Source: an uncultured Planctomycetales bacterium (GTDB lineage: Bacteria > Omnitrophota > Gorgyraeia > Zapsychrales > Fredricksoniimonadaceae). From it: a stretch of 64,000 bases of DNA. The stretch covers positions 138,224-202,223 of the forward strand of contig CAZNDZ010000003.1 of assembly GCA_964572155.1 (NCBI GenBank), in the 5' to 3' direction. This document shows positions 28,295 to 45,539 of this stretch, piece by piece. Made by a program: the position numbers and the translations under genes. How positions within the stretch are numbered: position 1 is the first letter of the stretch; the number at the start of each line of letters is the position of its first letter. Below the pieces are notes generated by a model. The model was not told the origin of the DNA. It worked only from the letters and a program-made list of their open reading frames with translations, and did no database searches.

Positions 28295-29153
28295 GAACAT
28301 TTTCAGAACAAAGCAACGCACAATTTCATTTGAATTGTTCCCCCCTAAAACACCTGAGGGTGAAACAAAACTCTTTACCACCATTGAAAAACTTGGTTGT
28401 CTCAAACCTGATTTCTTCTCGTGCACCTATGGTGCGGGTGGGTCAAGCCGTGGAAAAACTTTAGAAATTGTCAGCCACATCCAAGATAAATATAAGATCG
28501 CGGCCATGGCGCATTTGACATGTGTCATGCATACCAAGGATGACATTAAGAATATTCTCGAGGATATGAAACAGCGCCACATCAACAATATCTTGGCCTT
28601 GCGTGGTGATCCACCAAAAGATAATCCTAATTACCAATTAGAAAAAGAAAACTTTGCTTACTCTTCTGACTTGATTAAATTTATCCGCAATTATCTTGGT
28701 GAGACAGCGACGATTGCTGCCGCAGGATTTCCGGAAGGGCATATCTTAGCACCCAACAAAATTTTTGATGCGGGCATCCTAAAAAGCAAGATCGATCATG
28801 GCGCGGACTTCATCATCACCCAATTATTTTTCAACAATCAAGAATATTACGATTACATCGCACGCTTAAAACACTTGGGCGTAACTGCACGCGTGATCCC
28901 AGGAATATTACCAATCACCGACTATAACGCGCTGGTTCGTTTTTGTGCTCTTTGCGGCGCCACCATCCCCCAGAACGTGCACGCTATCTTTAAACCCCTA
29001 GCTGATAATCCAGTTGCCACGCTTGAGGCCGGTATCAAATTTGCAGTTGAACAATGCCAAGATCTTCTTGATCATGGTGCACCTGGATTACACTTCTACA
29101 CGCTAAACAAAGTTTCCCCGACGCAAGAAGTTCTAAGTAAGCTTAAAATTTAA
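28281..29153 (+). CDS. metF: 5,10-methylenetetrahydrofolate reductase
   Basis: ISFELFPPKT, FSCTYGAGGS, AHLTC, LALRGDPP, colinear with E. coli MetF; start chosen at ATG (MPNIKNIF) rather than upstream TTG. Confidence 0.85.
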   Translation: MPNIKNIFRTKQRTISFELFPPKTPEGETKLFTTIEKLGCLKPDFFSCTYGAGGSSRGKTLEIVSHIQDKYKIAAMAHLTCVMHTKDDIKNILEDMKQRHINNILALRGDPPKDNPNYQLEKENFAYSSDLIKFIRNYLGETATIAAAGFPEGHILAPNKIFDAGILKSKIDHGADFIITQLFFNNQEYYDYIARLKHLGVTARVIPGILPITDYNALVRFCALCGATIPQNVHAIFKPLADNPVATLEAGIKFAVEQCQDLLDHGAPGLHFYTLNKVSPTQEVLSKLKI

Positions 29154-31125
29154 GTTTCACACCAGCGTTATACGACCTGCCTTGGGCTGGAAAATGCGAC
29201 TTGATGTTGGATGTAACGGCTTTGCTAACGTAGATGTCATAATGTTCATCTAGGATATTATCTACTTCCCCAAAAACTTCCCATGTGTCTTTGCTGTAAC
29301 TTATTCGCGAATCCAAAACAAAATATGGGTCGGTTTGCGGCAATGCATTGCCGATATCATTGATAGCGAATTGATTGCCAACATAACGACCTTGGAGCAT
29401 CCAATCCAAATGATCGGTTAACCCCACCGCTAAACTCATTGCCCCCTGAAATTGTGGGGCCATGGGGACTTTATTACCTTTATAAACACCGTTACTAAAC
29501 GTAGCATGCTGATATGTATAATTTGTTTTCCATAATAATTTTTTTATCTGCTGCGCTTTAAGCATGGCTTTTAGATCCACCTCTTGTTCATACTCTACCC
29601 CAATGCGGCGGGTTCGATCATAATTACTCGTCGCACCAAAGCCACCACCGCCAGCGGGATCTAAGAAGATTTCATTGCGATTGTCCATGACATACGGCGT
29701 TAGACTAACTTTCAAGACATCATTGAAACGATGTTTGACCCCAGCTTGATATTGCACGCCTTTTTGTTGGTTTAAACTGGTATTTAAACCATTGAACGTA
29801 TCAAACCAATCATCCGTTGTTAAAAAACGAAACGTTTGGCTGACGTTGGCAAATATATTGCTTTGTGGAGCATATTCATATCTCATTCCGCCACTGGCGA
29901 TATGTTTATCGGGGTTTTGTTGTTGATACGTCTTTGTGCCGCTGACTTGATTGAACGTATAGTAGGCCTTATCAAAACGCGTACCTGCCTCCAGAAATAG
30001 ATTATCGACAACTTCATAACTGCCATTGGTATAAACCCCAATCTCATTTTTGGTTATCGTCAAATCATCACTGTTGCCAGCACTGCCATATATCCAATTG
30101 TCATCGGTATAATAATCAACACCTGTTGCTAAATTCAACAGCTTACCGTCGATCAAACGTTCCAGGACATAGCGACCATTGATGCCCCAACTATTAATGT
30201 TGCGCTTGGTGGCATATTCGCCAAAGGAATAAAACACCGCGTAACTATCTCGATTACGAAATGATGCATCGACGATAAAATGACCTAAATCTTCATCAGC
30301 CCACGGATTAAAATCGGTCGTGATCGCAAACATCCGATCCTTGGTCATGGCATAGTCCTCAGGATTGGCGGTACCTTTAGGTCCAAGCGTTGCCAAAGGC
30401 CCATCTTTTAAACCACCGGTTAAACCATATTTATCTTCATGCCAATTTAATTTAAAATCAATCTTAATGGGTTCAATAGGGTTTATACCAAGACGGCCCA
30501 CATAATCGCGGCTACGCAATTGGCTGTTTGCCCTATATCCGTCGGTATCAAACTGCTGTGCGCTAAAATAATAATCCACCTTCGATTGCGCGCCTGAAAA
30601 TTCCTGAGATGTTTTTAAGGTGTCATAACTACCATAGGTTGAGGATAAAACCGCATGATGCCCTGCCTTGCCCTTCTTGGTGATGATATTAATGACCCCG
30701 CCAACGGCATTGTCTCCATATAAAACAGAAGCCCCGCCGCGAATGATTTCAATGCGTTCAATAGAGTCGATGGGAATTTGCAGAAAATCAGGACCAGAAT
30801 TGTCAACAGGATTGATGCGTCGATGATTAACTAGAAGCAAGACATTACGCGTTGCGGTATCACCAAAGCCTCTCATATCTGCGACAACCGTCTTTGGAGA
30901 ACTGTTATCTACAATTGCAATACCCAACTGACCTTTTAACACATCCCCCACACTTTGCGCGTGGCTTTGGGCAATATCTTGACTAGAAATGACCGTTACT
31001 GACGATGGTAAATGAGCAACATCTTGATCGTAACGACTAGCAGTTAAAACAATTTTTTGTAAATCAATGGTTTCTGCAAAAACGGGGGTGGCAAACAACA
31101 ACAAAAAAAGGCATAGTACAGGCAT
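29143..31125 (-). CDS. btuB: TonB-dependent outer-membrane receptor, likely cobalamin transporter BtuB given the upstream B12 riboswitch
   Basis: Signal peptide MPVLCLFLLLFATPVFA; TonB box ETIDLQKIVLTAS; plug domain; C-terminal F; SD GGGAG 5 nt before ATG at 31125. Confidence 0.8.
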   Translation of the reverse strand: MPVLCLFLLLFATPVFAETIDLQKIVLTASRYDQDVAHLPSSVTVISSQDIAQSHAQSVGDVLKGQLGIAIVDNSSPKTVVADMRGFGDTATRNVLLLVNHRRINPVDNSGPDFLQIPIDSIERIEIIRGGASVLYGDNAVGGVINIITKKGKAGHHAVLSSTYGSYDTLKTSQEFSGAQSKVDYYFSAQQFDTDGYRANSQLRSRDYVGRLGINPIEPIKIDFKLNWHEDKYGLTGGLKDGPLATLGPKGTANPEDYAMTKDRMFAITTDFNPWADEDLGHFIVDASFRNRDSYAVFYSFGEYATKRNINSWGINGRYVLERLIDGKLLNLATGVDYYTDDNWIYGSAGNSDDLTITKNEIGVYTNGSYEVVDNLFLEAGTRFDKAYYTFNQVSGTKTYQQQNPDKHIASGGMRYEYAPQSNIFANVSQTFRFLTTDDWFDTFNGLNTSLNQQKGVQYQAGVKHRFNDVLKVSLTPYVMDNRNEIFLDPAGGGGFGATSNYDRTRRIGVEYEQEVDLKAMLKAQQIKKLLWKTNYTYQHATFSNGVYKGNKVPMAPQFQGAMSLAVGLTDHLDWMLQGRYVGNQFAINDIGNALPQTDPYFVLDSRISYSKDTWEVFGEVDNILDEHYDIYVSKAVTSNIKSHFPAQGRSYNAGVKLKF

Positions 31126-31144
31126 GTAAACTCCCATCTCTCGT

Positions 31145-31280
31145 AGGGTTAATTAAAACGACTGCATCAGCGGGCATTCGGACTTGTTCCCTAGAGGGAC
31201 TTACCGTAGCGGGACTGCTCCTGAGTTGCACAGGATTTCCCCATCTGATACTTCAACAACGCTTCATACCCTGCATACAA
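31145..31280 (-). promoter_or_regulatory. Cobalamin (adenosylcobalamin) riboswitch in 5-prime leader of the TonB-dependent receptor gene
   Basis: Minus-strand GGGAAAUCCUGUGCAACUCAGGAGCAGUCCCGCUACGGUAAG matches the conserved core (E. coli btuB leader AGGGAAUCCAGUGCGAAUCUGGAGCUGACGCGCAGCGGUAAGG); downstream AAGUCCGAAUGCCCGCUG resembles the B12 box. Confidence 0.7.
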
Positions 31281-31709
31281 CACCATGCTGTAGGCAACAG
31301 TACTTAGCAATGTACTTCTAAAAAATGGAATGGCTAAAATATAACAATCAGTTAAACCCGCCCACGTGCGCGGGTAAAGCGTTAGAAAAGCACCAAAATT
31401 TGTGACGATAAAAAATATGACAGCGCCCAAAATGCTGCCGCCTAAGACATTAGCCCAACTCTTACGTGACTTTAGAAATGAACCAATCGCGCTAATGGCA
31501 ATCATGCTGCCATAAGTAAAAACCATGGTGTCATGGAAGCCTAAGATTAAGTCAGTGACAAGCATCATACCGACTGGAACCATATATGCCATGCGGCCTT
31601 TTAAATACATGCCGGCAAATAAAGCGATTGCCAGCGTCGCCGTAAATTGCGGTGTATGCACGATGACGCGCGAAAAAATTCCAATGATAACTAAGAGGAT
31701 TGCAAACAT
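31191..31709 (-). CDS. Small polytopic membrane protein, ECF-transporter S-component-like (function uncertain); last about 18 codons overlap the riboswitch
   Basis: 172 aa, 5-6 hydrophobic helices; stop codon TAG lies inside the riboswitch core. Confidence 0.45.
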   Translation of the reverse strand: MFAILLVIIGIFSRVIVHTPQFTATLAIALFAGMYLKGRMAYMVPVGMMLVTDLILGFHDTMVFTYGSMIAISAIGSFLKSRKSWANVLGGSILGAVIFFIVTNFGAFLTLYPRTWAGLTDCYILAIPFFRSTLLSTVAYSMVLYAGYEALLKYQMGKSCATQEQSRYGKSL

Positions 31710-32121: not shown

Positions 32122-32469
32122 TTAATTCATGCTTAACTTTAAAGGTTTGATCGTCTTAAGTTCTTTACTAGGATTCTTATGTGCATGCCAAAGGTCATAG
32201 GCTACTTGTCCTTGTATCCAAAACTCAACAGAAGTTTCAAAAAGCCTGCCTAATCGCTGAGCTATTTCTAGGGACAGTGGTTTGCGGGTGTGCACGATAT
32301 CAATAAGATGCTTCCGAGAAATCTTTAGATGAGAAGCCATATCTTGTTGAGTGATGTTATATGGCAACATAAACTCCTCTACTAATATTTCTCCAGGATG
32401 TATTGGAGCTCTATTCTTTGGTAATCGGATGGTATTTCTTAAATTAGTTTTCATTATTCTTCCTTTCAA
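32122..32469 (-). CDS. higA: HigA antitoxin (XRE-family HTH)
   Basis: IHPGEILVEEFMLPYNITQQDMASHLKISRKHLIDIV...FWIQGQVAYDLW matches HigA consensus; ATGA overlap with higB. Confidence 0.8.
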   Translation of the reverse strand: MKGRIMKTNLRNTIRLPKNRAPIHPGEILVEEFMLPYNITQQDMASHLKISRKHLIDIVHTRKPLSLEIAQRLGRLFETSVEFWIQGQVAYDLWHAHKNPSKELKTIKPLKLSMN

Positions 32470-32759
32470 TGATAATCAATGATTTCGACTTCGCTTGGCC
32501 CCAAATCTGTCCAATAGAAACAAATCCTATATTGATCATTGATTCGAATACTATGTTGTCCTTTTCGATCCCCCTTAAGAGCTTCCAACTTGTTGTTTGG
32601 CGGCGATCTTAAATCATTTAGAGTAACAGCATGATCTAACGCATAAAATTTTCTGTACGCAACCCTCCATAAAGAAACAGGCAAACATTTCAAGGCAACT
32701 TTAGTTCGAATGCCGTCATATACAGATTCTGCTGCGCTATTCTTAAAACTTTGTATCAC
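32466..32759 (-). CDS. higB: HigB toxin (RelE/ParE superfamily plasmid maintenance system killer)
   Basis: LKGDRKGQHSIRINDQYRICFYW...VEIIDYH matches HigB consensus. Confidence 0.8.
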   Translation of the reverse strand: MIQSFKNSAAESVYDGIRTKVALKCLPVSLWRVAYRKFYALDHAVTLNDLRSPPNNKLEALKGDRKGQHSIRINDQYRICFYWTDLGPSEVEIIDYH

Positions 32760-32850: not shown

Positions 32851-33945
<1,095 letters not shown>

Positions 33946-34022: not shown

Positions 34023-35021
34023 CTACGCTTCCCTTAAAAATTTCGCTGAGGTGTGCGGGTACGTTGGGGTTATATGTAACCCTGTTCCCCATTCAAAACC
34101 AATGCTGCGGGTTAATTTGGGGATAATTTCAATATGCCAATGATAACATTTTGGCTTGGAATACTTGACCGGCGCCGTATGGATAAAGAAATTATACGAC
34201 GGGTTCGATAATGCTTTGCGCATGCGCTTTAATACATCCAACAAATGCGCCGATAAATCTCCTAACATCTCAACTTGCATATCAGCAAATGATGCCATAT
34301 GGGATTTGGGCACAATCCACGTTTCAAAAGCATACCGTGGTGCATACGGACAAAAAGCTAAATATGAATTGTTCTCGGCCACAATGCGCTCGCGGTCCTT
34401 ATATTCTTGTTCTAAGACATCACAAAAGACGCAACGTTGATTAGCTTCATAATATTGATGACTGCCGCGCAATTCTTCATTAACAGCTTTTGGCACCATG
34501 GGCAGCGCAATGATTTGGCTATGCGCATGCTCGACGGTCGCACCAGCAGACGCCCCAAAATTTTTAAAGACACTCACATATTGCACACGCTCATCAAGAG
34601 ACAAGGCTTTGCTGCGGCTTAAGAATTGTTGCAACACAAAACCCATTTCCTCGACGCTTAAATCTGCTAAATTCTTTTGATGATCAGCTGTCTCAATGAC
34701 GACCTCATGCGCGCCAACACCCCCCATGACATCAAACATGCCATAAGCTTCCTTATCAACATCACCTTCTGTTGTAAGCGCTGGAAATTTATTTGGCACC
34801 GTGCGCACCAACCAACCCGAAGAATTAGGTTCACTTGCTTTCGGACGCAAGGCATCTACTTCTGGTGGCGTAAAATGTTCTTTACCTGGGCAAAATTGAC
34901 AGGTGTTCTTATGACCTGGGAGATTATTGGTTTCCTTAATAAAATCCCCTGGACCTTTTTGATGGTCGCTATCAATGATGACCCAACGGCCGACAATAGG
35001 ATCTCGACGTAATTCAGCCAT
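34023..35021 (-). CDS. Galactose-1-phosphate uridylyltransferase-family (GalT-type HIT) hexose-1-phosphate nucleotidyltransferase, catalytic motif intact
   Basis: 332 aa; Zn site CQFCPG; active-site HAHSQ (HxHxQ); C-terminal HWHIEIIP. Confidence 0.75.
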   Translation of the reverse strand: MAELRRDPIVGRWVIIDSDHQKGPGDFIKETNNLPGHKNTCQFCPGKEHFTPPEVDALRPKASEPNSSGWLVRTVPNKFPALTTEGDVDKEAYGMFDVMGGVGAHEVVIETADHQKNLADLSVEEMGFVLQQFLSRSKALSLDERVQYVSVFKNFGASAGATVEHAHSQIIALPMVPKAVNEELRGSHQYYEANQRCVFCDVLEQEYKDRERIVAENNSYLAFCPYAPRYAFETWIVPKSHMASFADMQVEMLGDLSAHLLDVLKRMRKALSNPSYNFFIHTAPVKYSKPKCYHWHIEIIPKLTRSIGFEWGTGLHITPTYPHTSAKFLREA

Positions 35022-35989
35022 TAAATGTTTACCTCCCGTAAGAACTTTGCTGTCATTTCTGGAGGGATAGGATTAATATAAAAACCTGTGCCTCGCTCAA
35101 AACCTGCAGTGCGGGTTAAGCGGGGCAATAATTCAATATGCCATGAATAACACTCAGGCATATCTAAATCAAATGGCGCACTTTGAATGACATAGTTATA
35201 TGCCGGGTCATTCAAACCGATTTTATATTTTAAGAATAAATTTTTCATCACGATCGCTAATTCCGTCTCCAACCCTTCTATCCCATGGACATAATCGTAA
35301 TATTGACGCTTTTCTTTAGGCATGATCCATACTTCAAAAGGAAAGCGTGCGGCAAAAGGACAAAAGGCAATGAAATTCTCCGTCTCTAAAACAATGCGCT
35401 CTTTTTCTTTAAGCTCCTGACGAACTAAGTCATAAAAAAGTGAGCGCTCATGAAAGTTAAAGTACAATTTAGCGCCATTGATCTTATCTTGCACACGCAT
35501 GGGCAAGACAGGAATGGCCATGATTTGAGAACGAGCATGTCCAATGTTGCGACTTCCTGCAGCAACGCCATAATTCTTATACGCTAAGACATACTTAATT
35601 GATTTATCTTGATGATGATGCCACATGCGTAGCGCATACGTCTTAAAAACAGCACGAATTTGTTCGACGGGTAAATCTGCTAAATTGGCAATATGCTCAG
35701 GAGTCTCAATGACCACCTCGTGGCTGCCATGCGAATGACATGATTGATATAAACCATCCTGTCTTACTGTTACTGATTGAGTCTCAGAAAAGATAGGCGT
35801 ACCGCTTTTGACAACGCGCACATTTTCATGTGCTAATAATAGTGTGGATTGGGTGTCGTGACAAAATGGGCACCCTTCTTTTTGAGTAACTGCTGGTGAT
35901 GGATCAACAAACGCCGCTGGACGACGAGCACGTTCTGTGGCAATGATGACCCATCGACTAACGATTGGATCTTTGCGTAATTGAGGCAT
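35021..35989 (-). CDS. GalT-type HIT family paralog with nucleophilic His replaced by Arg (GHARSQ), probably non-canonical or inactive
   Basis: 322 aa; CPFCHD Zn site; aligned motif HARSQ versus HAHSQ in downstream paralog; Arg codon ACG(rc CGT) at 35531-35533. Confidence 0.7.
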   Translation of the reverse strand: MPQLRKDPIVSRWVIIATERARRPAAFVDPSPAVTQKEGCPFCHDTQSTLLLAHENVRVVKSGTPIFSETQSVTVRQDGLYQSCHSHGSHEVVIETPEHIANLADLPVEQIRAVFKTYALRMWHHHQDKSIKYVLAYKNYGVAAGSRNIGHARSQIMAIPVLPMRVQDKINGAKLYFNFHERSLFYDLVRQELKEKERIVLETENFIAFCPFAARFPFEVWIMPKEKRQYYDYVHGIEGLETELAIVMKNLFLKYKIGLNDPAYNYVIQSAPFDLDMPECYSWHIELLPRLTRTAGFERGTGFYINPIPPEMTAKFLREVNI

Positions 35990-36044
35990 TTAAAAATTAT
36001 ATCAAAGGCTTCTTAATTATACAAGTTCTGTTAACATTAATTCA

Positions 36045-37553
36045 ATGCGTTTTTGGTTAAATAAACCCCATTTGCTTGAATATTTCATTATCATTGTTGC
36101 GCTGATCCTATCATTCTCGCCTGCCCTAACAATGATTTATATTTACCATGACGATGTACAATTCTGGCTATCCCCTCCCACACATGACTATTTCCCTAAC
36201 ATTTGTCATTACATCATCTATTTAGGCCGTTATCTAGGCGCACTCATACTATACTTAAACTTTTTCCTGGTTGATACACCTGCTGATTTAAATAGAATAC
36301 ATCTCATAAGCATTGCATTGATCATCACCTGTGCTTTATGTAGTTATAAAATTCTCTTGGACTATTTTAAGAAACCTCTCAATGCCACCCTCGTGGCGTT
36401 GATCATTTTCTCTCTCCCTGCTTTTCAAGCAATAAGTTGCCTCACAATATTATGCTATGTACCCTATGCTATCTTGTGTGCAATTGGCGCTCTCTATGTT
36501 GCCCCAAAAAATTTCTACATAGCTTCTCTTTTAATGTTCATGTCTCATTTGATTTACCCACCCGCCGCGACATTCTATTGGGCCATGGCTACATTCATCC
36601 TTTTCAGAGAAGTAGAACCAAAGGATTTTAGTAAAAAACTACGTGAAATTCTTCTGCCTGGCATCATGGGAATCATGATGTATGCAATAACTTTTAAAAT
36701 TGTTGGTAGTTTCTTACATTATAAATTTGTATCTCATTATCAACCTCAGAACATGACGACAGATGTTTTTTCAAAATTCTCCTGGTTTCTATCGACCATT
36801 CTTCCCCAAGTACTCAATTTATGGAATATCAAAGGAGACAACTTTATTCCTTTGATTCTTGGCATCCTGATCATGGGAGCGGGTACAATGTGGTTAATTC
36901 AACATCGCTCTTGGACTCGTCCTGCGATTATCATATTATTTTTATTCTTATCCTACTTACCTAACTTTTTATCCGCATTAAATATTAATGTGTACCGTTG
37001 CCAAATCGGCTTAACGACATTGTTCGTCTTTATTTTGATATCTAGCTTAAAACAATATTTGCGTTTTATCCCCCCCATAGCCCAATCACATTTCTTTTCG
37101 GTCATACTCTGCGTTGCTTGTGCATGGGGACTTTGGCAAAGTTACAATAATATTGCCCACGCACGCGTTATCCCAAGCCATCAAGAATACATGACCGTAA
37201 GGAATGCCATCAAAGATTCGCTTGGAAAAATGAAAAGCATATACGTGATTATTCCAAGCGCATCATCACAATCTACACCTCACGACGAATTTGTTGGATT
37301 AACATCAAATTATTATGCAGACATGGTTGTATTTGTTAACGCCATTCTCTATGACATTGCTTCAAAAGAAGGATTAAAATGGGTATATATGGATTTTAAC
37401 GAGCAAAATAGTGCGGAAAAAATTGTATTTCAAGATATCAAAGACCCCAAAAAGAACTTTACAGTAAGTTTAGATGTTGTCATTTCCGATGCGCCTCCAA
37501 GGATACAATTGCCAGAAACAGTTATACTGATCGATCTAAGAAAAGAGAAATGA
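36045..37553 (+). CDS. Polytopic membrane protein, possible GT-C-like (YHDD loop motif)
   Basis: 502 aa; about 11 TM helices; hydrophilic C-terminal about 130 aa. Confidence 0.4.
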   Translation: MRFWLNKPHLLEYFIIIVALILSFSPALTMIYIYHDDVQFWLSPPTHDYFPNICHYIIYLGRYLGALILYLNFFLVDTPADLNRIHLISIALIITCALCSYKILLDYFKKPLNATLVALIIFSLPAFQAISCLTILCYVPYAILCAIGALYVAPKNFYIASLLMFMSHLIYPPAATFYWAMATFILFREVEPKDFSKKLREILLPGIMGIMMYAITFKIVGSFLHYKFVSHYQPQNMTTDVFSKFSWFLSTILPQVLNLWNIKGDNFIPLILGILIMGAGTMWLIQHRSWTRPAIIILFLFLSYLPNFLSALNINVYRCQIGLTTLFVFILISSLKQYLRFIPPIAQSHFFSVILCVACAWGLWQSYNNIAHARVIPSHQEYMTVRNAIKDSLGKMKSIYVIIPSASSQSTPHDEFVGLTSNYYADMVVFVNAILYDIASKEGLKWVYMDFNEQNSAEKIVFQDIKDPKKNFTVSLDVVISDAPPRIQLPETVILIDLRKEK

Positions 37554-38486: not shown

Positions 38487-40168
38487 GGGTCGATATTAAG
38501 CGTACAAATTACGCCGGAGATACGTTTGACGGTTTGCATGCTTGTTTTAATATGCTTGATAATATCAGGAACGTGTTGCCCTCCTACCATCAAGCGAAAA
38601 CGGTATTGATCCCTTAGCTTAGCCGGTGTATCGGGCATCACCTCGGTGATCTTTAACAGAGCTCCTTGGGATTGCTTTAAACAATTATACACATCTTGCG
38701 CCATCCTTAAGGCATTTTTTTCCTTCTTGGAACGCATCACCAACGCCACCCAGTGATAAAACGGTGCAAAATTTAATTCTTGCCGCATTGATAATTCTTC
38801 TCGATAAAAGCGATCCTCGTCGTTGGACGTAAACGCTTTTAGCATCGGGTGATCCAAATTACGGGTCTGTACTAAAATCTTTTTTCCCATGGTTTGAAGC
38901 CGTCGCAACATGCGCCACACTTTAAAGGACGACTGCATTTCTAAACGATTTAGCGCCGTGTCAATTTCAATAACGGCCACTGTTTCTACAGATATTTCCT
39001 GCTGAAAATTTAAAATAGCAACCGTTGCAATCATGACATCCCATTTTGCAGTAATGCGCTCAGAGGCCGTCTCATAGGTTGACACGTGCGCCGTCGGAAA
39101 AAGATTCGCTATTTCTTTTTGAGCTTTTTCTAAACCCATGCCAAATGATTTCCATGATGCTACCTTACACGTGGGGCATTGCCCTGCATCCTTCATCTGA
39201 TGCAAGCATTGATGGCAGTTAAAAACATGTTTGGCCGCACTATAAGCCATGGCACTCGCACAACGCGGGCATTTTAAAACATAATGACACGTGGCGCATC
39301 GAGTCACGCTAAATGTTCCTCGACGATTAAATAGCAGCAACGTTGGTTTTTGAGCTTTGATGTTTGCCTCTAAGGCATTGCGCACAGGCACAGATAAAAT
39401 GCCTTTATCTAAATATTTATAATTAGTTGTATCGATCACTGTCGGGGAAACGTCCATATGACCTTGGCGCGTGTATTCAATGGCTTTGGTGTTAACCAAC
39501 TGCATGAGTTCAACCGACGGCGTTTGGCTGATAAACACCACATCAAAACCATAAACGCGTTGTGCCATTAAAACCACGTGGCGTGTTTCATACATGGGCG
39601 ATTGCTCTTGCTTAAACGAATCATCATCCTCATCGATGACAATGATCCGTGATTTTTGTGCAAAAGCCTCAAACATGGAAGAACGCATCCCATGGGGATG
39701 TTCTTTGCCTAGCATTTTTGCCCTGTGCATATCTGCAACCAAAACAAAATAATGCCCCCCTGTTGCACAAGCCGCCTTCAAAGCTTCTTGAAAATACCCA
39801 TCCACACAGTGAAACAAACTTGTTCTTGGGTTTGGATTCGGTTTCAAGGCAAATGGCGGTTGTTTACGATGACGCATCATGACAGCCAACGCTTCTCCGA
39901 CGCTGCAACCATAGTATCCCGCAAATATCTTCGCGAAATTTAGATCACGCTGATCAAAAATCGGGGTTTGGTCAATCAAGGACTTGATCGGCTTTATTTT
40001 TTCAATGCTGCTTTCATTATTTAAAGCCACAACAAAACCTGTCACTATGCGCGCGCCAAAAGAAACCCTGACACGCACGCCTCTAACCACTTTATTTTCT
40101 AATGCCGGTGGGATTAAATAATCAAACGGTTCTTCTAGGGGAAGATCAACAACGACTTTCGCAATCAT
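38483..40168 (-). CDS. priA: Primosomal protein N-prime (PriA) homolog with degenerate helicase motifs (no Walker A GSGKT; DEDD instead of DEEH), Cys-rich zinc region intact
   Basis: N-terminal 3-prime-DNA-binding and winged-helix regions, CxxC x4 zinc region CATCHY...CPRC...CHQC...CPTC, but Walker A position reads CVDGYFQE. Confidence 0.75.
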   Translation of the reverse strand: MIAKVVVDLPLEEPFDYLIPPALENKVVRGVRVRVSFGARIVTGFVVALNNESSIEKIKPIKSLIDQTPIFDQRDLNFAKIFAGYYGCSVGEALAVMMRHRKQPPFALKPNPNPRTSLFHCVDGYFQEALKAACATGGHYFVLVADMHRAKMLGKEHPHGMRSSMFEAFAQKSRIIVIDEDDDSFKQEQSPMYETRHVVLMAQRVYGFDVVFISQTPSVELMQLVNTKAIEYTRQGHMDVSPTVIDTTNYKYLDKGILSVPVRNALEANIKAQKPTLLLFNRRGTFSVTRCATCHYVLKCPRCASAMAYSAAKHVFNCHQCLHQMKDAGQCPTCKVASWKSFGMGLEKAQKEIANLFPTAHVSTYETASERITAKWDVMIATVAILNFQQEISVETVAVIEIDTALNRLEMQSSFKVWRMLRRLQTMGKKILVQTRNLDHPMLKAFTSNDEDRFYREELSMRQELNFAPFYHWVALVMRSKKEKNALRMAQDVYNCLKQSQGALLKITEVMPDTPAKLRDQYRFRLMVGGQHVPDIIKHIKTSMQTVKRISGVICTLNIDP

Positions 40169-41244
40169 ATGAGGCTAATAATGTCTTTCACCGCCGTTGG
40201 TTTGGCCAAGACAGCAATCGCAGTACGTAATTTCTCTAGATTTCCTGGGGAGGCATTTAAATCATCGATGGTTGAAATGATTTGAGGCACGGTCATTTGA
40301 TCTTGAGCCACACCATACTTCTTTAAAACAAAAATATTTTGCATCTCTTGGCCTGGTATCGCAGAGAAGAATAACATCGGTAATCGTTTAACCAAGGCCT
40401 CAGCAATGGATAATCCACCTGGCTTTGTGACCATCACATCAGCGACGGACATCAACTCATCCATGTTATTGACAAGCCCAAAAATATGCACATAAGCACT
40501 CGCCTTTGGTAAAAGCTTTTCGTATAAAGCCTTGTTATGACCACAGACAACCAAGACATGATACCCTTTAAGACCATCAATCAACTCTTCGATTGGCCCC
40601 ATCCCAAATGATCCTGTTGCAATCAACACATTGATGGCTGGCGGATACAGTTTAAATTGCGCTTTTAATTGTGCTACATCCACATCTTTAGAAAATTGTG
40701 ATAATGTTGGAATGCCCGTCACAAAAGCACGATCTGGATGAACGCCTAGGGCAATCAATTTATCTTTGGTGAATAACGAAGCCCCTGTATAAATATCAAT
40801 GCCTTGATTAACCCAAATACGATGCACATCAAAATCAGTAACCACACAAACAACCTTAGATTTGATCTGCCCCGTACGTTTTAAATAGGCGCTGACCTCG
40901 GCAGATAAAAACTGAGTGGTGATGATGCAATCAAATTTCTCGTCGATAAGAAACTTTTGTAACGCTTGAGCGTTTAAACCATTATAAATGCGACGCACCA
41001 CCCGAACCGCAGGTTGTAACCAAGCAATATTCAACACCCCAAAAAAGAATGCCCACAAAAATGGAAACTTGGTGACCATGAGCGCATAAGTTTCTGGGTA
41101 GGTGACTTTGAAAAACGGATTGGTATAATCAAGCGCATCGACGAGCTTCGCATTATGTCCGTCAGCAATTAAACCTTGATAAACGGCTTCTGCGGCTTTC
41201 TTATGACCTGCTCCGGCTGTGGCGTGTATGACGAGGATTTTCAT
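40165..41244 (-). CDS. GT28-family glycosyltransferase (MGDG synthase / UgtP / MurG-like fold)
   Basis: MKILVIHATAGAGHKKAAEAV N-terminal G-rich loop typical of MGDG_synth; C-terminal GT28 domain. Confidence 0.65.
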   Translation of the reverse strand: MKILVIHATAGAGHKKAAEAVYQGLIADGHNAKLVDALDYTNPFFKVTYPETYALMVTKFPFLWAFFFGVLNIAWLQPAVRVVRRIYNGLNAQALQKFLIDEKFDCIITTQFLSAEVSAYLKRTGQIKSKVVCVVTDFDVHRIWVNQGIDIYTGASLFTKDKLIALGVHPDRAFVTGIPTLSQFSKDVDVAQLKAQFKLYPPAINVLIATGSFGMGPIEELIDGLKGYHVLVVCGHNKALYEKLLPKASAYVHIFGLVNNMDELMSVADVMVTKPGGLSIAEALVKRLPMLFFSAIPGQEMQNIFVLKKYGVAQDQMTVPQIISTIDDLNASPGNLEKLRTAIAVLAKPTAVKDIISLI

Positions 41245-41788
41245 CTAAAACTATTCTAACGGCATCGTGCAAATTGGCAACCACATAATCAGGTTTTGCA
41301 CCTTCCTTCAAAGCGAGCGCTTTGGTGCCCTTCCCTGATAAAACCAAGATGGTCCGAAATCCAGATGCCTGTCCTGTTTTAATATCAATGGGTGAATCTC
41401 CAATAAAGAAACTCCCCTTTAAATCTAAAAGGCGTTTCCCCAAACTTGCCGCGGCTTTTTGCACATTGGCAATCCCTGGTTTACGACAAGCACATTTGTC
41501 GTCGGGGTGATGTGTGCAATAAAAGCTTTTATGGATACGTCCGCCCGCTTTTACAACACCACGATGCAAATGTGCGTCAATTTGGTTGAGTTTTGCTTGG
41601 GTAAAACGACCACGGCCAACCCCAGCTTGGTTAGAGATAACAAAGACTTTATATTGATGTTGGGTTAAATCTGCAATGGCTTGTAATGAGCCAGGTATGA
41701 AATGAAAATCTTTGACCCGCGTGACGTAATCGCCATGTCCGGGGAATTGGTTGATCACCCCATCACGGTCAAGAAAAACTACATTCAC
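41201..41788 (-). CDS. gmhB: D-glycero-D-manno-heptose 1,7-bisphosphate phosphatase (HAD family)
   Basis: VFLDRDGVIN motif I; zinc-binding CTHHPDDKCACRKP; 195 aa. Confidence 0.8.
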   Translation of the reverse strand: MNVVFLDRDGVINQFPGHGDYVTRVKDFHFIPGSLQAIADLTQHQYKVFVISNQAGVGRGRFTQAKLNQIDAHLHRGVVKAGGRIHKSFYCTHHPDDKCACRKPGIANVQKAAASLGKRLLDLKGSFFIGDSPIDIKTGQASGFRTILVLSGKGTKALALKEGAKPDYVVANLHDAVRIVLDENPRHTRHSRSRS

Positions 41789-42546
41789 TCTCTAACCCCA
41801 TTCTTACGTTCCCAATACTTGGCGTAAGAAATGACTTGGTATAATGAAGCGTAATAGGCAATCATAAAACCAACAAACCCATCACGGTAACCTTGTTTGA
41901 CGATAAAACTGCGGAAAAAACGATCCACGGTGCGCCATACAGCAATATGCAAGGGCATCTTACGGCCCGTCTGAATCCACTTTTCAGCTTCCAAGGTGGT
42001 TTGACGATTTAAACTTTGCAAGAAATGTTCAAAATCAGGGTATCCCTTGTGGATTAAATCCTTGGTCAAATGCCCTGTTTTACCGTCGAGGAAAACGCGT
42101 GGATGAACGCCCACTTCTTCATATTTAAAACGGCTCTTTTGAAACATGCGCAACTTTCCAGCTGGATACCAACCAGAATGCTGCACCCAATATTTACCAA
42201 TGTAATTGCGCATCGGCATATCAAAGGCATTAAATGTTGTATTTGGAATTGTGGCAACAATCTCTGCGGCTAAATCACTGCTGACCATCTCATCAGCGTC
42301 TAAACTTAAAACCCATTCATTCTTAGCTTGTGCATACGCCCAATTGCGGTGAATACCCTCATTATCCATCTTGCGATGAAAAATTTTAGCCCCATAACCT
42401 TTGGAGATCTCAACCGTCTTATCGGTGCTCTCATCGTCGACAATGACGATTTCATCGGCGAAGTCCACAACGCTTTTTAAGCAATCGTGCATGTTGCGCT
42501 CTTCATTTTTTGTGATAATGACAACCGAAAGTGGTATTTTAGCCAT
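41785..42546 (-). CDS. GT2 glycosyltransferase, WaaE/KdtX-like (LPS core)
   Basis: SVVIITKNEE, ADEIVIVDDESTD, LSLDADE. Confidence 0.75.
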   Translation of the reverse strand: MAKIPLSVVIITKNEERNMHDCLKSVVDFADEIVIVDDESTDKTVEISKGYGAKIFHRKMDNEGIHRNWAYAQAKNEWVLSLDADEMVSSDLAAEIVATIPNTTFNAFDMPMRNYIGKYWVQHSGWYPAGKLRMFQKSRFKYEEVGVHPRVFLDGKTGHLTKDLIHKGYPDFEHFLQSLNRQTTLEAEKWIQTGRKMPLHIAVWRTVDRFFRSFIVKQGYRDGFVGFMIAYYASLYQVISYAKYWERKNGVRE

Positions 42547-42548
42547 AA

Positions 42549-43649
42549 CTATAAGGATTCCTTTAGCGCTTGGACAACTGTTTGAACCTGTTCCTTGGTC
42601 ATATGTGGGAACATGGGCAAGCTCATGATCTGACTTGCAACTTTCTCAGCAACGGGAAAATCACCTTGCTTATAACCTAATTCAGCATATGCTTCTTGCA
42701 TATGCAAAGGAATTGGATAATGAATCAAAACACCGATGCCCTTGGCTTTCATGGATTCCATGACTTTATCGCGATTCGGCACCGTCACTGCAAATGTTTG
42801 ATACACATGTGTACGATCAGATTTAACAAACGGCGCTGTCACACCTTTAAGATCCTTTAACAATGCTCCATAATGCGCTGCAGCTTGTGCGCGCATCGCA
42901 TTCCATTGATCCAAATGCTTTAACTTTGCATTGAGCACCACCGCTTGGATGGTATCTAGACGGGAATTTGTCCCTTTGATTTTATGTTCATAGCGTCCTT
43001 GACGACCATAATCACGCAACATCAACGCTTTTTCATAGATATCTTTATTATTGGTAACAATCATACCTGCGTCGCCACATGCACCTAAACTCTTTGTTGG
43101 GTAAAACGAAAAACACGCTAAATCACCCAATGAACCAACACGGCGGCTATGATAGCGAGCACCATGGGCTTGAGCGGCATCTTCGACAACTTTAATATTA
43201 TGCTTCTTAGCAATGGCTTGAATTTCATCCATGTCCGCTGGCTGACCATACAAATGCACGACGATGATGGCCTTTGTTTTCTTGGTAATGGCCTTTTCAA
43301 TCGCCTTTGGATCCATGTTGTACGTATCAGGTTGAATATCTACAAAAACAGGTTTCGCACGGCAGAAAGAAACACACAATGCCGTTGCAATGAAGGTATG
43401 TGTTGGAACAATGACCTCATCACCTTCTTGTAATTCTAAGGTGGATAAACCTAAATGCAATGCATCAGTTCCAGAATTAACACCGACGGCATATTTTGCT
43501 TCGCAATAATTGGCAAAAGCTTTTTCAAAAATCTGAGCCTGTTCACCTAAGATATAATCGCCTTTTTCAAAAACCTTCTTGAAACCCACGTCAACTTCAT
43601 CTTGGATCAACTTATTTTGCTCTTTGAAATCAATGAACGGAATGCTCAT
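42549..43649 (-). CDS. DegT/DnrJ/EryC1/StrS-family PLP-dependent sugar aminotransferase (catalytic Lys present)
   Basis: ACFSFYPTKSLGACGDAGMIVTN with Lys in the PLP Schiff-base position. Confidence 0.85.
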   Translation of the reverse strand: MSIPFIDFKEQNKLIQDEVDVGFKKVFEKGDYILGEQAQIFEKAFANYCEAKYAVGVNSGTDALHLGLSTLELQEGDEVIVPTHTFIATALCVSFCRAKPVFVDIQPDTYNMDPKAIEKAITKKTKAIIVVHLYGQPADMDEIQAIAKKHNIKVVEDAAQAHGARYHSRRVGSLGDLACFSFYPTKSLGACGDAGMIVTNNKDIYEKALMLRDYGRQGRYEHKIKGTNSRLDTIQAVVLNAKLKHLDQWNAMRAQAAAHYGALLKDLKGVTAPFVKSDRTHVYQTFAVTVPNRDKVMESMKAKGIGVLIHYPIPLHMQEAYAELGYKQGDFPVAEKVASQIMSLPMFPHMTKEQVQTVVQALKESL

Positions 43650-44712
43650 ATACGAAACTCACCTTTCTATATACGTCCTCTACAGACAAGTCTTTTAAAC
43701 AACTAAAGTGTTCACACTGAGCTACAAAAAATCGCTTATAACACGGCTGACATGCTAAATTTTTCTTAACAACCTCATGACCAGCCGACGGATAGGGGCC
43801 GTAAACTTTTTCATCAACTGGACCAAAAATACTGATCGTCTTGACACCGCTGGCAACGGCCACATGTAAGGGGCCACCATCGTTAAGCACAGCTAAACTA
43901 CAATATTTCAATAAAGCTGCCATTTGCAAGATCGATGTTTGACCAACCGCGGAATAAACTGGTGAGGCTGCCAGAGAGGTGATCTCTGTTGCTAACCCTT
44001 GTTCCTTGGCATCACCGAATAGTATAACAGTGACACCTAGATCCGCAATCATTTTATCAATTAACTGTGCATATTTTGCCGCAGGCCAACGTTTTCGTTC
44101 TGCACGACCTCCCCAACTAGCACCGCCACCTGGCACAACCGCAACCAACTTAGAAACTTGGCTTATGTCATTGTTAACCAACCATTGCCCTGCCCAAATT
44201 TCCTCATCTTTACCCACATTCAGACGCATTGCCTTAACAACAGCAGGCACGTCAATAAACTTTAATAAATCAAGGTAATATTCAACAACATGTTTATTTT
44301 CATAGCCTTTAAGCTCTATTTTATGGGTTAACATGATCCCTCGACCCTTAAAATCATAGCCGATGCGCATCTTGATCCCTGCAATCCATGCTAAACAACC
44401 AAACATACGGTTTAAGGAAAAATCAACGGCAACATCGCAACGTTCTTGCCGTATGGCGTCGATAAAAGCAAACCATCTTTTTGCGTAGGCAAAAAAATTC
44501 TTTTTCCGCGCTTTAACAAACTCGTCGCGTTCATAAGATATAACATTGTCTACATTTGGATTTGATTTGATAAGAACAGCGGTGCGGTCATTGGCGATGT
44601 AGGAAATCCGCGCAAGTGGATATTTTTTCTTGATGTTGGCGATAACAGGATCTGCAAATAAACAATCACCGACACCAAAAGGATTGATAATTAGAATACG
44701 ATTGAATGTCAT
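43630..44712 (-). CDS. GT9 ADP-heptose:LPS heptosyltransferase family
   Basis: ILIINPFGVGDCLFADPVI N-terminus and C-terminal GGGASW...NDGGPLHVA motifs typical of RfaC/RfaF/RfaQ. Confidence 0.85.
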   Translation of the reverse strand: MTFNRILIINPFGVGDCLFADPVIANIKKKYPLARISYIANDRTAVLIKSNPNVDNVISYERDEFVKARKKNFFAYAKRWFAFIDAIRQERCDVAVDFSLNRMFGCLAWIAGIKMRIGYDFKGRGIMLTHKIELKGYENKHVVEYYLDLLKFIDVPAVVKAMRLNVGKDEEIWAGQWLVNNDISQVSKLVAVVPGGGASWGGRAERKRWPAAKYAQLIDKMIADLGVTVILFGDAKEQGLATEITSLAASPVYSAVGQTSILQMAALLKYCSLAVLNDGGPLHVAVASGVKTISIFGPVDEKVYGPYPSAGHEVVKKNLACQPCYKRFFVAQCEHFSCLKDLSVEDVYRKVSFVYEHSVH

Positions 44713-45539
44713 TGGATAGATTCTTTAACCCTTTTGCCTGTTTTATAACGTATTCTATACCAAAGTGCCGGATGCCACCAATATTTCTTTTGAATGTCCC
44801 GCCAATCTTGCCCACTTAATACGTGCGCATCAACCATTGACTGCATGACAGACGGATGTGTGCCAAAATAGGTCGCAAAGCGATTTAAATCCCCAAAACC
44901 GCTGATTTCCTTTGAACTATCCGCATAACCAATGGCCGCAGCATTTTGAGATCGTTTTTGAATGTCTTCCGCCGAATTTACCCAACCATAATGATATAAA
45001 TAACAATGGGTCGGCGCATTTTGTAGGGGCTTGCCATCTTTGCGGGCAAAACCAAAGGCATCTCCAACAGAGATAATTTCACCATTATTGCGCACAATAC
45101 GGTCTTGCTTTTGATACCATCCTTTGTCGATGCGATAACGCCAAAATGAGCCATAAAAATGCAACCACTTAAAACGCAGGGCATCAATCGAAGGGTTATT
45201 TAAATGCTGCTGCATGCATTGTTTGATCTTAGGCAAGTCCGCCTCGTGAATCACTTCATCTGACTGAACGTAAAACGCCCAATCACCACTACACGCCTTT
45301 AACGCAATATTGGTCTGCTCAGACAAAACTGTTGAGCCTTGCCCCATATTCCACGTTGTTTGGATAATGCGCAGCTTAGAGCTTTTGATGGATTGGATTA
45401 ATGCTAGAGTGTCATCGTCGCTGTTTCCGACATTAACAATAAATTCATCGCAAATGGGCAATATGGATTCTATGGCCGCCTTAACAGGGTAGTTAAACTT
45501 GATAGCATTGCGAACAATGGTAAAACCGCTTATTTTCAT
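44709..45539 (-). CDS. Putative GT-A-fold nucleotide-sugar transferase (family uncertain)
   Basis: 276 aa; MKISGFTIVRNAIKF N-terminus, QSDE acidic motif; ATGA overlap with GT9 gene. Confidence 0.35.
   Translation of the reverse strand: MKISGFTIVRNAIKFNYPVKAAIESILPICDEFIVNVGNSDDDTLALIQSIKSSKLRIIQTTWNMGQGSTVLSEQTNIALKACSGDWAFYVQSDEVIHEADLPKIKQCMQQHLNNPSIDALRFKWLHFYGSFWRYRIDKGWYQKQDRIVRNNGEIISVGDAFGFARKDGKPLQNAPTHCYLYHYGWVNSAEDIQKRSQNAAAIGYADSSKEISGFGDLNRFATYFGTHPSVMQSMVDAHVLSGQDWRDIQKKYWWHPALWYRIRYKTGKRVKESIQ

Follow-up and report, generated by a model that had tools for sequence, protein, structure and literature searches.

In a 64,000-nucleotide stretch of contig CAZNDZ010000003.1 (assembly GCA_964572155.1, positions 138,224 to 202,223; hereafter the window), two adjacent genes on the minus strand encode proteins of the galactose-1-phosphate uridylyltransferase (GalT) branch of the HIT superfamily. 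The open reading frame (ORF) transcribed first, here called U (35021-35989), encodes 322 amino acids and carries the motif GHARSQ, while the second, called D (34023-35021), encodes 332 amino acids and carries EHAHSQ. Their junction (35019-35037, minus strand) combines a one-base TAATG overlap with a Shine-Dalgarno sequence: a single base is common to the stop codon of U (TAA, 35021-35023) and the start codon of D (ATG, 35019-35021), and a GGGAGG Shine-Dalgarno sequence for D is found inside the 3' end of U, at 35032-35037, ten bases 5' of the junction. On the 3' side of the pair lies an ORF for glyceraldehyde-3-phosphate dehydrogenase, gap (32851-33912, minus strand), which is a conserved neighbour. 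An earlier note on this DNA, made from the letters and the ORF list, had described U and D as tandem GalT-type paralogs, and this description was borne out, since both ORFs were found on the minus strand, their products are 36% identical over 339 columns (BLASTP, E = 6e-78), and both passed the Pfam and TIGR00209 family models.

Family membership and fold of U and D

The Pfam model PF01087 (GalP_UDP_transf; gathering cut-off 22.1 bits) matched D with 47 bits and U with 34.9 bits, and PF02744 (GalP_UDP_tr_C; cut-off 29.2 bits) matched D with 37.7 bits and U with 47 bits. TIGR00209 (cut-off 102.1 bits) was likewise exceeded by both D (120.8 bits) and U (108.1 bits). The equivalog model PRK11720 of NCBIfam, with a cut-off of 448 bits, was not reached by either protein (145.4 bits for D and 117.1 bits for U); thus, although the public annotation of both genes reads GalT, DUF4921 or DUF4931, the 'GalT' label is unjustified at the equivalog level.

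The nearest solved relative of both proteins is the Arabidopsis ADP-glucose phosphorylase At5g18200 (PDB 1Z84; E = 1.2e-64 for D and 3e-56 for U), with the E. coli and human GalTs being more distant. At5g18200 (1Z84, 2H39), also a member of the GalT branch, shares with U and D the two-half architecture, the CxxC/H/H zinc site and the GFExGTG-YxN loop, and has the same HxHxQ motif as D. It forms, however, a homodimer whose identical chains make two active sites, whereas U and D are two diverged chains; unlike At5g18200, moreover, U carries Arg in place of the nucleophile and is without the N-K-F motif, and D has no RxxR. The class I GalTs (E. coli, 1HXP/1HXQ/1GUP; human GALT, 5IN3) have the same fold and the same composite site across the dimer interface, but are only 21-23% identical to U and D, and UDP-hexose specificity of the latter is not implied by the family match.

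The AlphaFold2 (AF2) model of the U monomer was confident (predicted local distance difference test, pLDDT, 89.7; predicted template modelling score, pTM, 0.90), and its best fold match was again At5g18200 (1Z84), with a template modelling score of 0.83-0.87. Placement was poor only for the GFE loop, where residues 294-302 had a pLDDT below 50, and for the RxxR block (pLDDT 67), the two elements that would be expected to need a partner chain.

Unless stated otherwise, residue counts here and below refer to 74 species-level Omnitrophota loci with two complete genes, compared with 45 single-copy representatives of the family. The first C-C-H-H zinc site (C52, C55, H115 and H164 of E. coli GalT) is complete in both U and D, as it is in 74 of 74 orthologs of each. 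In U it comprises the CxxC residues C40 and C43 (35861-35872, minus strand), together with H99 and H151, each present in all 74 orthologs; the CxxC of D is C41/C44, and the earlier note was therefore right to assign an N-terminal CxxC to both proteins. Its further statement that both carry a C-terminal HxH block fits D (HWH) and fails for U, which reads SWH. A second C-C-H-H tetrad (C216, C219, H255 and H310 of At5g18200) is kept in 69 of 74 U and 74 of 74 D orthologs, but has become S, Y, Q and S in the window U. The U orthologs nearest to it (loci L010, L011, L012 and L030) show, together with it, a joint replacement by S, Y/L, Q and S/C, which looks like a coordinated loss of the second metal site in one sub-lineage. 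The signature that defines catalytic members, HxHxQ with the nucleophile His, is present in D as H165-A-H167-S-Q169 (34515-34529, minus strand) and is replaced in U by H151-A-R153-S-Q155 (35525-35539, minus strand). U thus belongs to the family through its descent and fold, but is not among its catalytic members.

Residues lost and kept in the two copies

HMMER alignment to At5g18200 placed His167 of D and Arg153 of U both on the nucleophile His186, which corresponds to H166 of E. coli GalT; the earlier note's observation that the upstream copy has Arg where the downstream copy keeps the nucleophilic His was thus confirmed, and the codon of R153 at 35531-35533 indeed reads CGT and not CAT or CAC. 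A search with U returned 3964 relatives, and H-x-R-S-Q, and with it the arginine of that note, was found in 117 of 117 full-length U orthologs of 52-100% identity. Across the 74 loci, the H166 position of the upstream copy is occupied by R in 68, H in three, C in two and K in one, whereas the downstream copy has His in all 74, along with the equivalents of H164 and Q168. More diverged syntenic U orthologs have Ser (P0125, which is also without the zinc ligands) or Arg (P0142), and Arg encoded by CGN or AGR codons occurs at this position in hundreds of independent assemblies. In the three upstream copies that retain His (L036, L047 and L048, with HSHSQ, HTHSQ and HAHSQ, respectively), F79 is lost throughout and N77 is still present in L036, while their D partners are without R28; these loci may be intermediate states of the reciprocal loss described below.

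A one-genome-per-species scan gave more than 580 matching stretches, the best 80 of which all came from metagenome-assembled genomes (MAGs) labelled Omnitrophota or Omnitrophica, except for a third-party assembly series under the label 'uncultured Planctomycetales' and a single 'uncultured bacterium'. The pairing of U with D was found in 74 of 74 complete loci, always in the order U-then-D, and at 65 of 78 orthologous junctions the two genes overlap or are at most 15 nucleotides apart; such overlaps suggest that U and D may be made in equal amounts. The arrangement U-D-gap recurs in L001, L002, L004 and L007. In a neighbour-joining tree the U and D sequences fell into separate clades, with bootstraps of 33/40 for U and 38/40 for D, and since each is monophyletic, a single old duplication is the simplest history. 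It is to be noted that typing by BLAST score was unreliable for upstream copies of distant clades, many of which scored nearer to D, and its place was taken by the tree and the residue tables. Mean pairwise identity was 59.5% among U and 58.1% among D orthologs (r = 0.94); U is thus as conserved as D, and is under purifying selection rather than decaying. Two solitary genes, P0179 (L090 4001-5026) and P0241 (L092 4001-4999), were considered as independent cases and rejected, as they have lost the nucleophile, N-K-F and RxxR altogether and stand without a partner gene beside them; they represent a different, fully non-catalytic offshoot of the family in other lineages.

For the residue tables, U orthologs, D orthologs and 45-122 single-copy representatives were aligned with At5g18200 and E. 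coli GalT, the sequence of the last being identical to 1HXQ. These tables revealed a reciprocal pattern. In E. coli numbering, R28 is present in 74 of 74 U but 1 of 74 D (43 of 45 single-copy representatives), and R31 in 72 of 74 U, the other two having K, but in none of the 74 D (39 of 45 single-copy). Conversely, N77 is found in 6 of 74 U and 74 of 74 D (43 of 45 single-copy), an aromatic residue (Phe or Tyr) at F79 is absent from the residues tallied in U but present in 74 of 74 D (42 of 45), and H166 remains in 3 of 74 U against 74 of 74 D (45 of 45). Fisher p values for these contrasts ranged from 1e-23 to 1e-29, with the loss of the arginines from D relative to the single-copy proteins giving p = 9e-29 for R28 and 2e-25 for R31. 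An unbiased scan of 83 columns, each at least 80% conserved in the single-copy family, recovered the same positions: the only complete losses in D were R28, R31 and one Asn (N334 of At5g18200), and the only complete losses in U were N77, A81, A160, H166 and the same Asn, whose equivalent is present in 0 of 74 D as against 44 of 45 canonical sequences.

In the window itself, U retains the RxxR block as E19-R20-A-R-R23-P24 (35918-35935, minus strand; R28/R31 of E. coli and R48/R51 of human GALT), whereas D has D19-H20-Q-K-G23-P24 (34950-34967, minus strand) at this position and has lost the pair. The nucleotide-binding motif, N77-D78-F79 in E. coli, is intact in D as N77-K78-F79 (34785-34793, minus strand; N in 74, K in 71 and F in 74 of 74 orthologs), and is replaced in U by S62-G63-T64 (35798-35806, minus strand). 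The hexose-phosphate or GFE loop is canonical in U (G296-F-E-R-G-T-G...Y304-I-N306, 35072-35104, minus strand), with G, F, E and Y each in 74 of 74 orthologs; in D (G308-F-E-W-G-T-G...H316-I-T318, 34068-34100, minus strand) the GFE is likewise found in 74 of 74, but Y-x-N has changed to H-x-T.

The same division is seen in three natural U-D fusion proteins, P0121, P0392 and P0393, with mutual identities of 52-56%. P0121 and P0392, from independent samples, share a PGM...TyrRS-fusion-gap-pgk-tpi context; the fusion-gap-pgk-tpi arrangement was observed in L006 and L094. Unit 1 of the fusions has an invariant V-E-R-A-K-R-P-N-D-F block and keeps GFEWGTGxYINP, but the zinc ligands, the nucleophile (now Tyr) and about 35 residues are gone from it. 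Unit 2 begins at the CxxC, and therefore is without the N-terminal arm that would carry RxxR, while every cis residue, i.e., every residue of the nucleophile-bearing side, is kept. When aligned by MAFFT, all unfused U and D sequences were placed onto unit 2. By their sequences, the fusions appear to have taken the same U/D division of labour further; that the arm is deleted from the catalytic unit and invariant on the degenerate one is not easily accounted for unless D receives the arm from U. P0123 (871 amino acids) is a fusion of another type, in which two complete tandem GalT-like units, both with HxHxQ and hence two catalytic units, follow a long low-complexity N-terminus.

Lastly, the former nucleophile pocket of U has gained features of its own. 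The loop Y140-G150 (YGVAAGSRNIG; 35540-35572, minus strand), between KN and the motif, has a one-residue insertion and has acquired R147 (35549-35551). Its length is 11 in 73 of 74 U, as against 10 in 72 of 73 matched D and 41 of 44 matched comparison sequences, the latter consisting of canonical representatives, E. coli GalT and At5g18200. Of the U copies, 85% have an Arg among the five residues that precede the motif, compared with 0% of the D copies. At the same time, U retains N139, H151 (a zinc ligand) and Q155, the equivalents of N153, H164 and Q168.

A proposed composite active site and its rivals

At5g18200 and the class I GalTs form homodimers whose active sites lie at the subunit interface. 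In human GALT, the Glc-1-P site is made of K334-Q346 of one chain, the counterpart of the GFE loop, and of two residues of its partner, Q188 and N173; Arg48 (E. coli R28) and Q188 belong to opposite chains, and Q188 contacts Asn97 (E. coli N77) in its own chain; in E. coli GalT, the bound UDP-Glc is contacted by R28, R31, G159 and S161 (PMC5081055). The class I active site therefore divides into a cis set (N77, N153, S161, H164, H166 and Q168) and a trans set (R28, R31 and K311-Q323). By this geometry U has lost cis residues and kept the trans set, and D, all of whose cis residues are conserved in 74 of 74 orthologs, has done the reverse, which would leave a complete site only in a U:D dimer, made of D in cis and U in trans. 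This pattern speaks against a dimer with two equivalent sites.

The following scheme is proposed. In the homodimers of the family, one chain contributes the zinc-held HxHxQ nucleophile and the nucleotide pocket, and the other the RxxR and the C-terminal GFE loop, which bind the phosphate and the hexose. In Omnitrophota, an ancient duplication would have been followed by complementary degeneration of the two copies, D keeping the cis set and losing RxxR, and U keeping the trans set and losing the nucleophile and N-K-F. A D:D dimer would then be without the arginines and a U:U dimer without the nucleophile, whereas U:D would have one working site, its two chains presumably co-translated through the one-base overlap and the internal Shine-Dalgarno sequence, directly upstream of gap. 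The reaction would be NDP-hexose + inorganic phosphate (or hexose-1-P) to NDP (or NDP-hexose) + hexose-1-P, with a nucleotidyl-His167(D) intermediate (NDP, nucleoside diphosphate). From the observed features, their conservation, the synteny, the fusions and the phylogeny, we infer that U and D pair physically, and consider it likely that they form an obligate heterodimer with a single composite active site beside an arginine-lined pseudo-site, probably acting as an NDP-hexose (ADP-glucose-type) phosphorylase or transferase. The earlier note had raised the idea of a heteromer of one catalytic and one non-catalytic or regulatory subunit, and the conserved pairing, order and spacing of the genes, the loss of RxxR from D and the U-D fusions all argue for it. 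The idea can be refined, however, in that U appears not to be merely regulatory, but to supply essential active-site residues in trans.

A number of observations weigh against the heterodimer or its details. Lys occupies the R31 position in 32 of 74 D, and D has conserved basic residues specific to it (R6, K116, K178 and K302), which might together substitute for RxxR and leave a D homodimer active. In the human ternary complex, Arg48 and Arg51 make no ligand contacts (PMC5081055), and the argument for their necessity thus comes from their conservation and from the E. coli complex. The Asn of the trans loop equivalent to N334 is Cys in 65 of 74 U, so that the functional site is not fully canonical and its substrate may differ from ADP-glucose. 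An AF2 model of the fusion P0121, computed from a three-sequence alignment, reached a pLDDT of only 32 and a pTM of 0.23, and was discarded. The U-like gene P0155 (L009) has no D partner in the 850-nucleotide stretch downstream. Regarding a functional link to gap, a good promoter-like site is also present between D and gap, and the linkage may be inherited synteny instead.

Some of these points would find an explanation if D were a self-sufficient homodimer and U a separate non-catalytic protein that merely adjoins it, be it a sugar-phosphate-binding regulator or a protein of unrelated role. Indeed, D has all the cis catalytic residues, the GFE loop and both metal sites, and its lysines at R31 and lineage-specific basic residues, the absence of ligand contacts by human R48 and R51 (PMC5081055), and the solitary P0155 would all be in keeping with such independence. 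We nonetheless regard it as unlikely, since arginines that are kept in 43 of 45 (R28) and 39 of 45 (R31) single-copy proteins, and in 74 and 72 of 74 U, survive in only one and none of the 74 D; the fusions, moreover, drop the arm from the catalytic unit while holding it invariant on the degenerate unit, and the gene overlap suggests equal production of the two proteins.

Still less probable, and in our view improbable by a wide measure, is that U is itself an enzyme, with the altered, phosphorylase-type chemistry that the earlier note had offered as its second suggestion. Such a U would carry out direct, non-covalent phosphorolysis or hydrolysis, with Arg153 stabilising the transition state; the Arg in 117 of 117 close orthologs and in 68 of 74 species, the conserved second Arg and one-residue loop insertion, the remaining equivalents of N153, H164 and Q168, and the equal conservation of U and D could be read in this way. 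However, the nucleotide-binding positions N77, F79 and A81 are lost in U, where the nucleophile would be, some U lineages have Cys, Lys, Ser or His and the fusions have Tyr, and the zinc ligands are gone from P0125 and from the fused version, which has shed about 35 residues as well. We also know of no member of the GalT branch that works without the nucleophile His. As for a sequencing or assembly error, or a decaying pseudogene, to which the loss of the second C-C-H-H tetrad in the window U could be ascribed, the chance is negligible and the notion was rejected, given the Arg in 117 of 117 orthologs, 68 of 74 species and hundreds of independent assemblies, the intact frame, the confident AF2 model, and a conservation of U slightly higher than that of D.

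If U and D form the heterodimer, its second, dead pocket, made of U in cis and D in trans, would have lost the two trans arginines of D and gained two cis arginines from U in their place. A U:U pocket would then be crowded with three to four arginines and a D:D pocket would have none, while U:D would be balanced, and the heterodimer would be favoured. Charge repulsion between the variant residue and the trans Arg48 has been suggested for Q188R, a variant seen in human galactosemia (PMC5081055); the His-to-Arg change of U lies two residues ahead of the Q188 site. The dead pocket might still bind phosphate or a sugar phosphate. We tentatively go one step further and entertain the possibility, doubtful as it is at present, that it is a purpose-built ligand site for inorganic phosphate or a sugar phosphate, through which the one catalytic site is controlled; U and D would then make up an allosterically regulated NDP-sugar phosphorylase that heads a gap operon. 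This suggestion derives from the pocket having kept N139 and Q155 of U and the invariant GFEWGTG loop of D while losing only the nucleoside pocket, and from its gain of the loop insertion and of R147 and R153 in place of the two arginines of D. Here, too, the substrate may not be ADP-glucose, considering the Cys of the trans loop in most U and the ADP-heptose-type lipopolysaccharide genes nearby. No published heteromeric, pseudo-site-regulated enzyme of the HIT superfamily was found in the literature.

For the catalytic site itself, ADP-glucose is our best guess of the likeliest substrate. Among characterised homologs, the nearest is an ADP-glucose phosphorylase (EC 2.7.7.36-type activity), glycogen synthesis is encoded in Omnitrophota MAGs (PMC8542988), the pair or its fused form lies directly upstream of gap(-pgk-tpi) with PGM nearby, and relatives of the family are fused to GlgA and GH57. 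These last are canonical, His-bearing proteins, of which P0154 (814 amino acids) is fused to glycogen synthase GlgA, and P0249 and P0261 to GH57-type alpha-glucan enzymes, tying the family to glycogen metabolism. A review of glycogen metabolism (PMC11046441) makes no mention of a GalT/ADP-glucose phosphorylase-type family. With glycan genes close by (see below), ADP-heptose, as another ADP-sugar, is a speculative alternative for a GalT-type enzyme.

Heteromers of catalytic and non-catalytic paralogs are known in other folds, examples being the small and large subunits of ADP-glucose pyrophosphorylase, GlgC/GlgD, and the AdoMetDC-prozyme pair of trypanosomatids. The logic is the same, in that a duplicated subunit loses catalysis and is retained because its partner needs it; the folds, however, are unrelated, and in U/D, as judged by sequence, both partners have lost something, leaving complementary half-sites. 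As in prozyme-type pairs, U and D are co-inherited and co-located and the non-catalytic copy is under purifying selection; in addition, RxxR is lost in D and kept in U, and three gene fusions exist, which together would imply dependence of the one on the other. The archaeal alpha/beta tRNA-splicing endonuclease similarly consists of one catalytic and one structural subunit, both of which are required for activity (PMC2761253). Within the family, the GalT monomer itself is made of two HIT-like halves, only the first of which has the motif (a Pfam HIT match was obtained on the C-terminal half of D), so that U/D would repeat duplication and loss of one site one level up; the internal pseudo-dimer, however, is an ancient intragenic fusion common to the whole family, whereas U/D is a later gene duplication specific to Omnitrophota. 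The literature search yielded no report of a heteromeric GalT/HIT-family enzyme.

The symmetric GalT-type homodimer seems, then, to have been turned into an obligate heterodimer across a phylum by complementary loss. If this is true, the pair would be a clean natural example of a duplicated homomer locked into a heteromer, in which a composite active site was subfunctionalised and a later gene fusion confirms the outcome. It would also offer a direct test of the need for the trans residues R28 and R31 in a clinically important family, with relevance to dominant-negative galactosemia alleles such as Q188R. Furthermore, it would correct hundreds of database entries in which both genes are named 'galactose-1-phosphate uridylyltransferase', and would flag an uncharacterised sugar-nucleotide step wired to glycolysis in the Omnitrophota, a phylum known here only from MAGs.

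Neighbouring genes and signals

Just 5' of U, a sigma-70-like promoter match (TTGAAT-18-TATAAT, 36016-36045, minus strand) agrees with the consensus at 10 of 12 positions. In a scan for promoters and terminators, the site counts in the region were not above those in shuffled sequences, and the match is thus suggestive by its position only. Divergent from U, the plus-strand ORF at 36045-37553 encodes a multi-pass membrane protein of 502 amino acids with no Pfam match; the gene in the equivalent position of L004/L005 has a weak match to PMT_2 (glycosyltransferase 39-like).

Farther upstream, beyond priA-fmt, a run of envelope-glycan genes occupies 40165-45539 on the minus strand, and comprises an MGDG-synthase-like GT28, a GmhB-like HAD phosphatase, a GT2, a DegT aminotransferase, a GT9 heptosyltransferase and a second GT2. 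The same block precedes the U-D pair in L003.

On the other side, just downstream of gap, a HigB-like toxin gene (32466-32759, minus strand; PF05015, E = 3e-15) is followed, with a 4-base overlap, by an ORF of 115 amino acids (32122-32469, minus strand) that has the look of a HigA-type helix-turn-helix antitoxin, with no Pfam match. Farther in this direction, an AdoCbl-II (cobalamin) riboswitch at 31164-31251 (minus strand; 40.4 bits against a gathering score of 36.5) overlaps the 3' end of a DUF6580 ORF (31191-31709). The riboswitch lies directly 5' of a gene for a TonB-dependent receptor with Plug and beta-barrel domains (29143-31137, minus strand), which is probably a B12-regulated, BtuB-like uptake gene.

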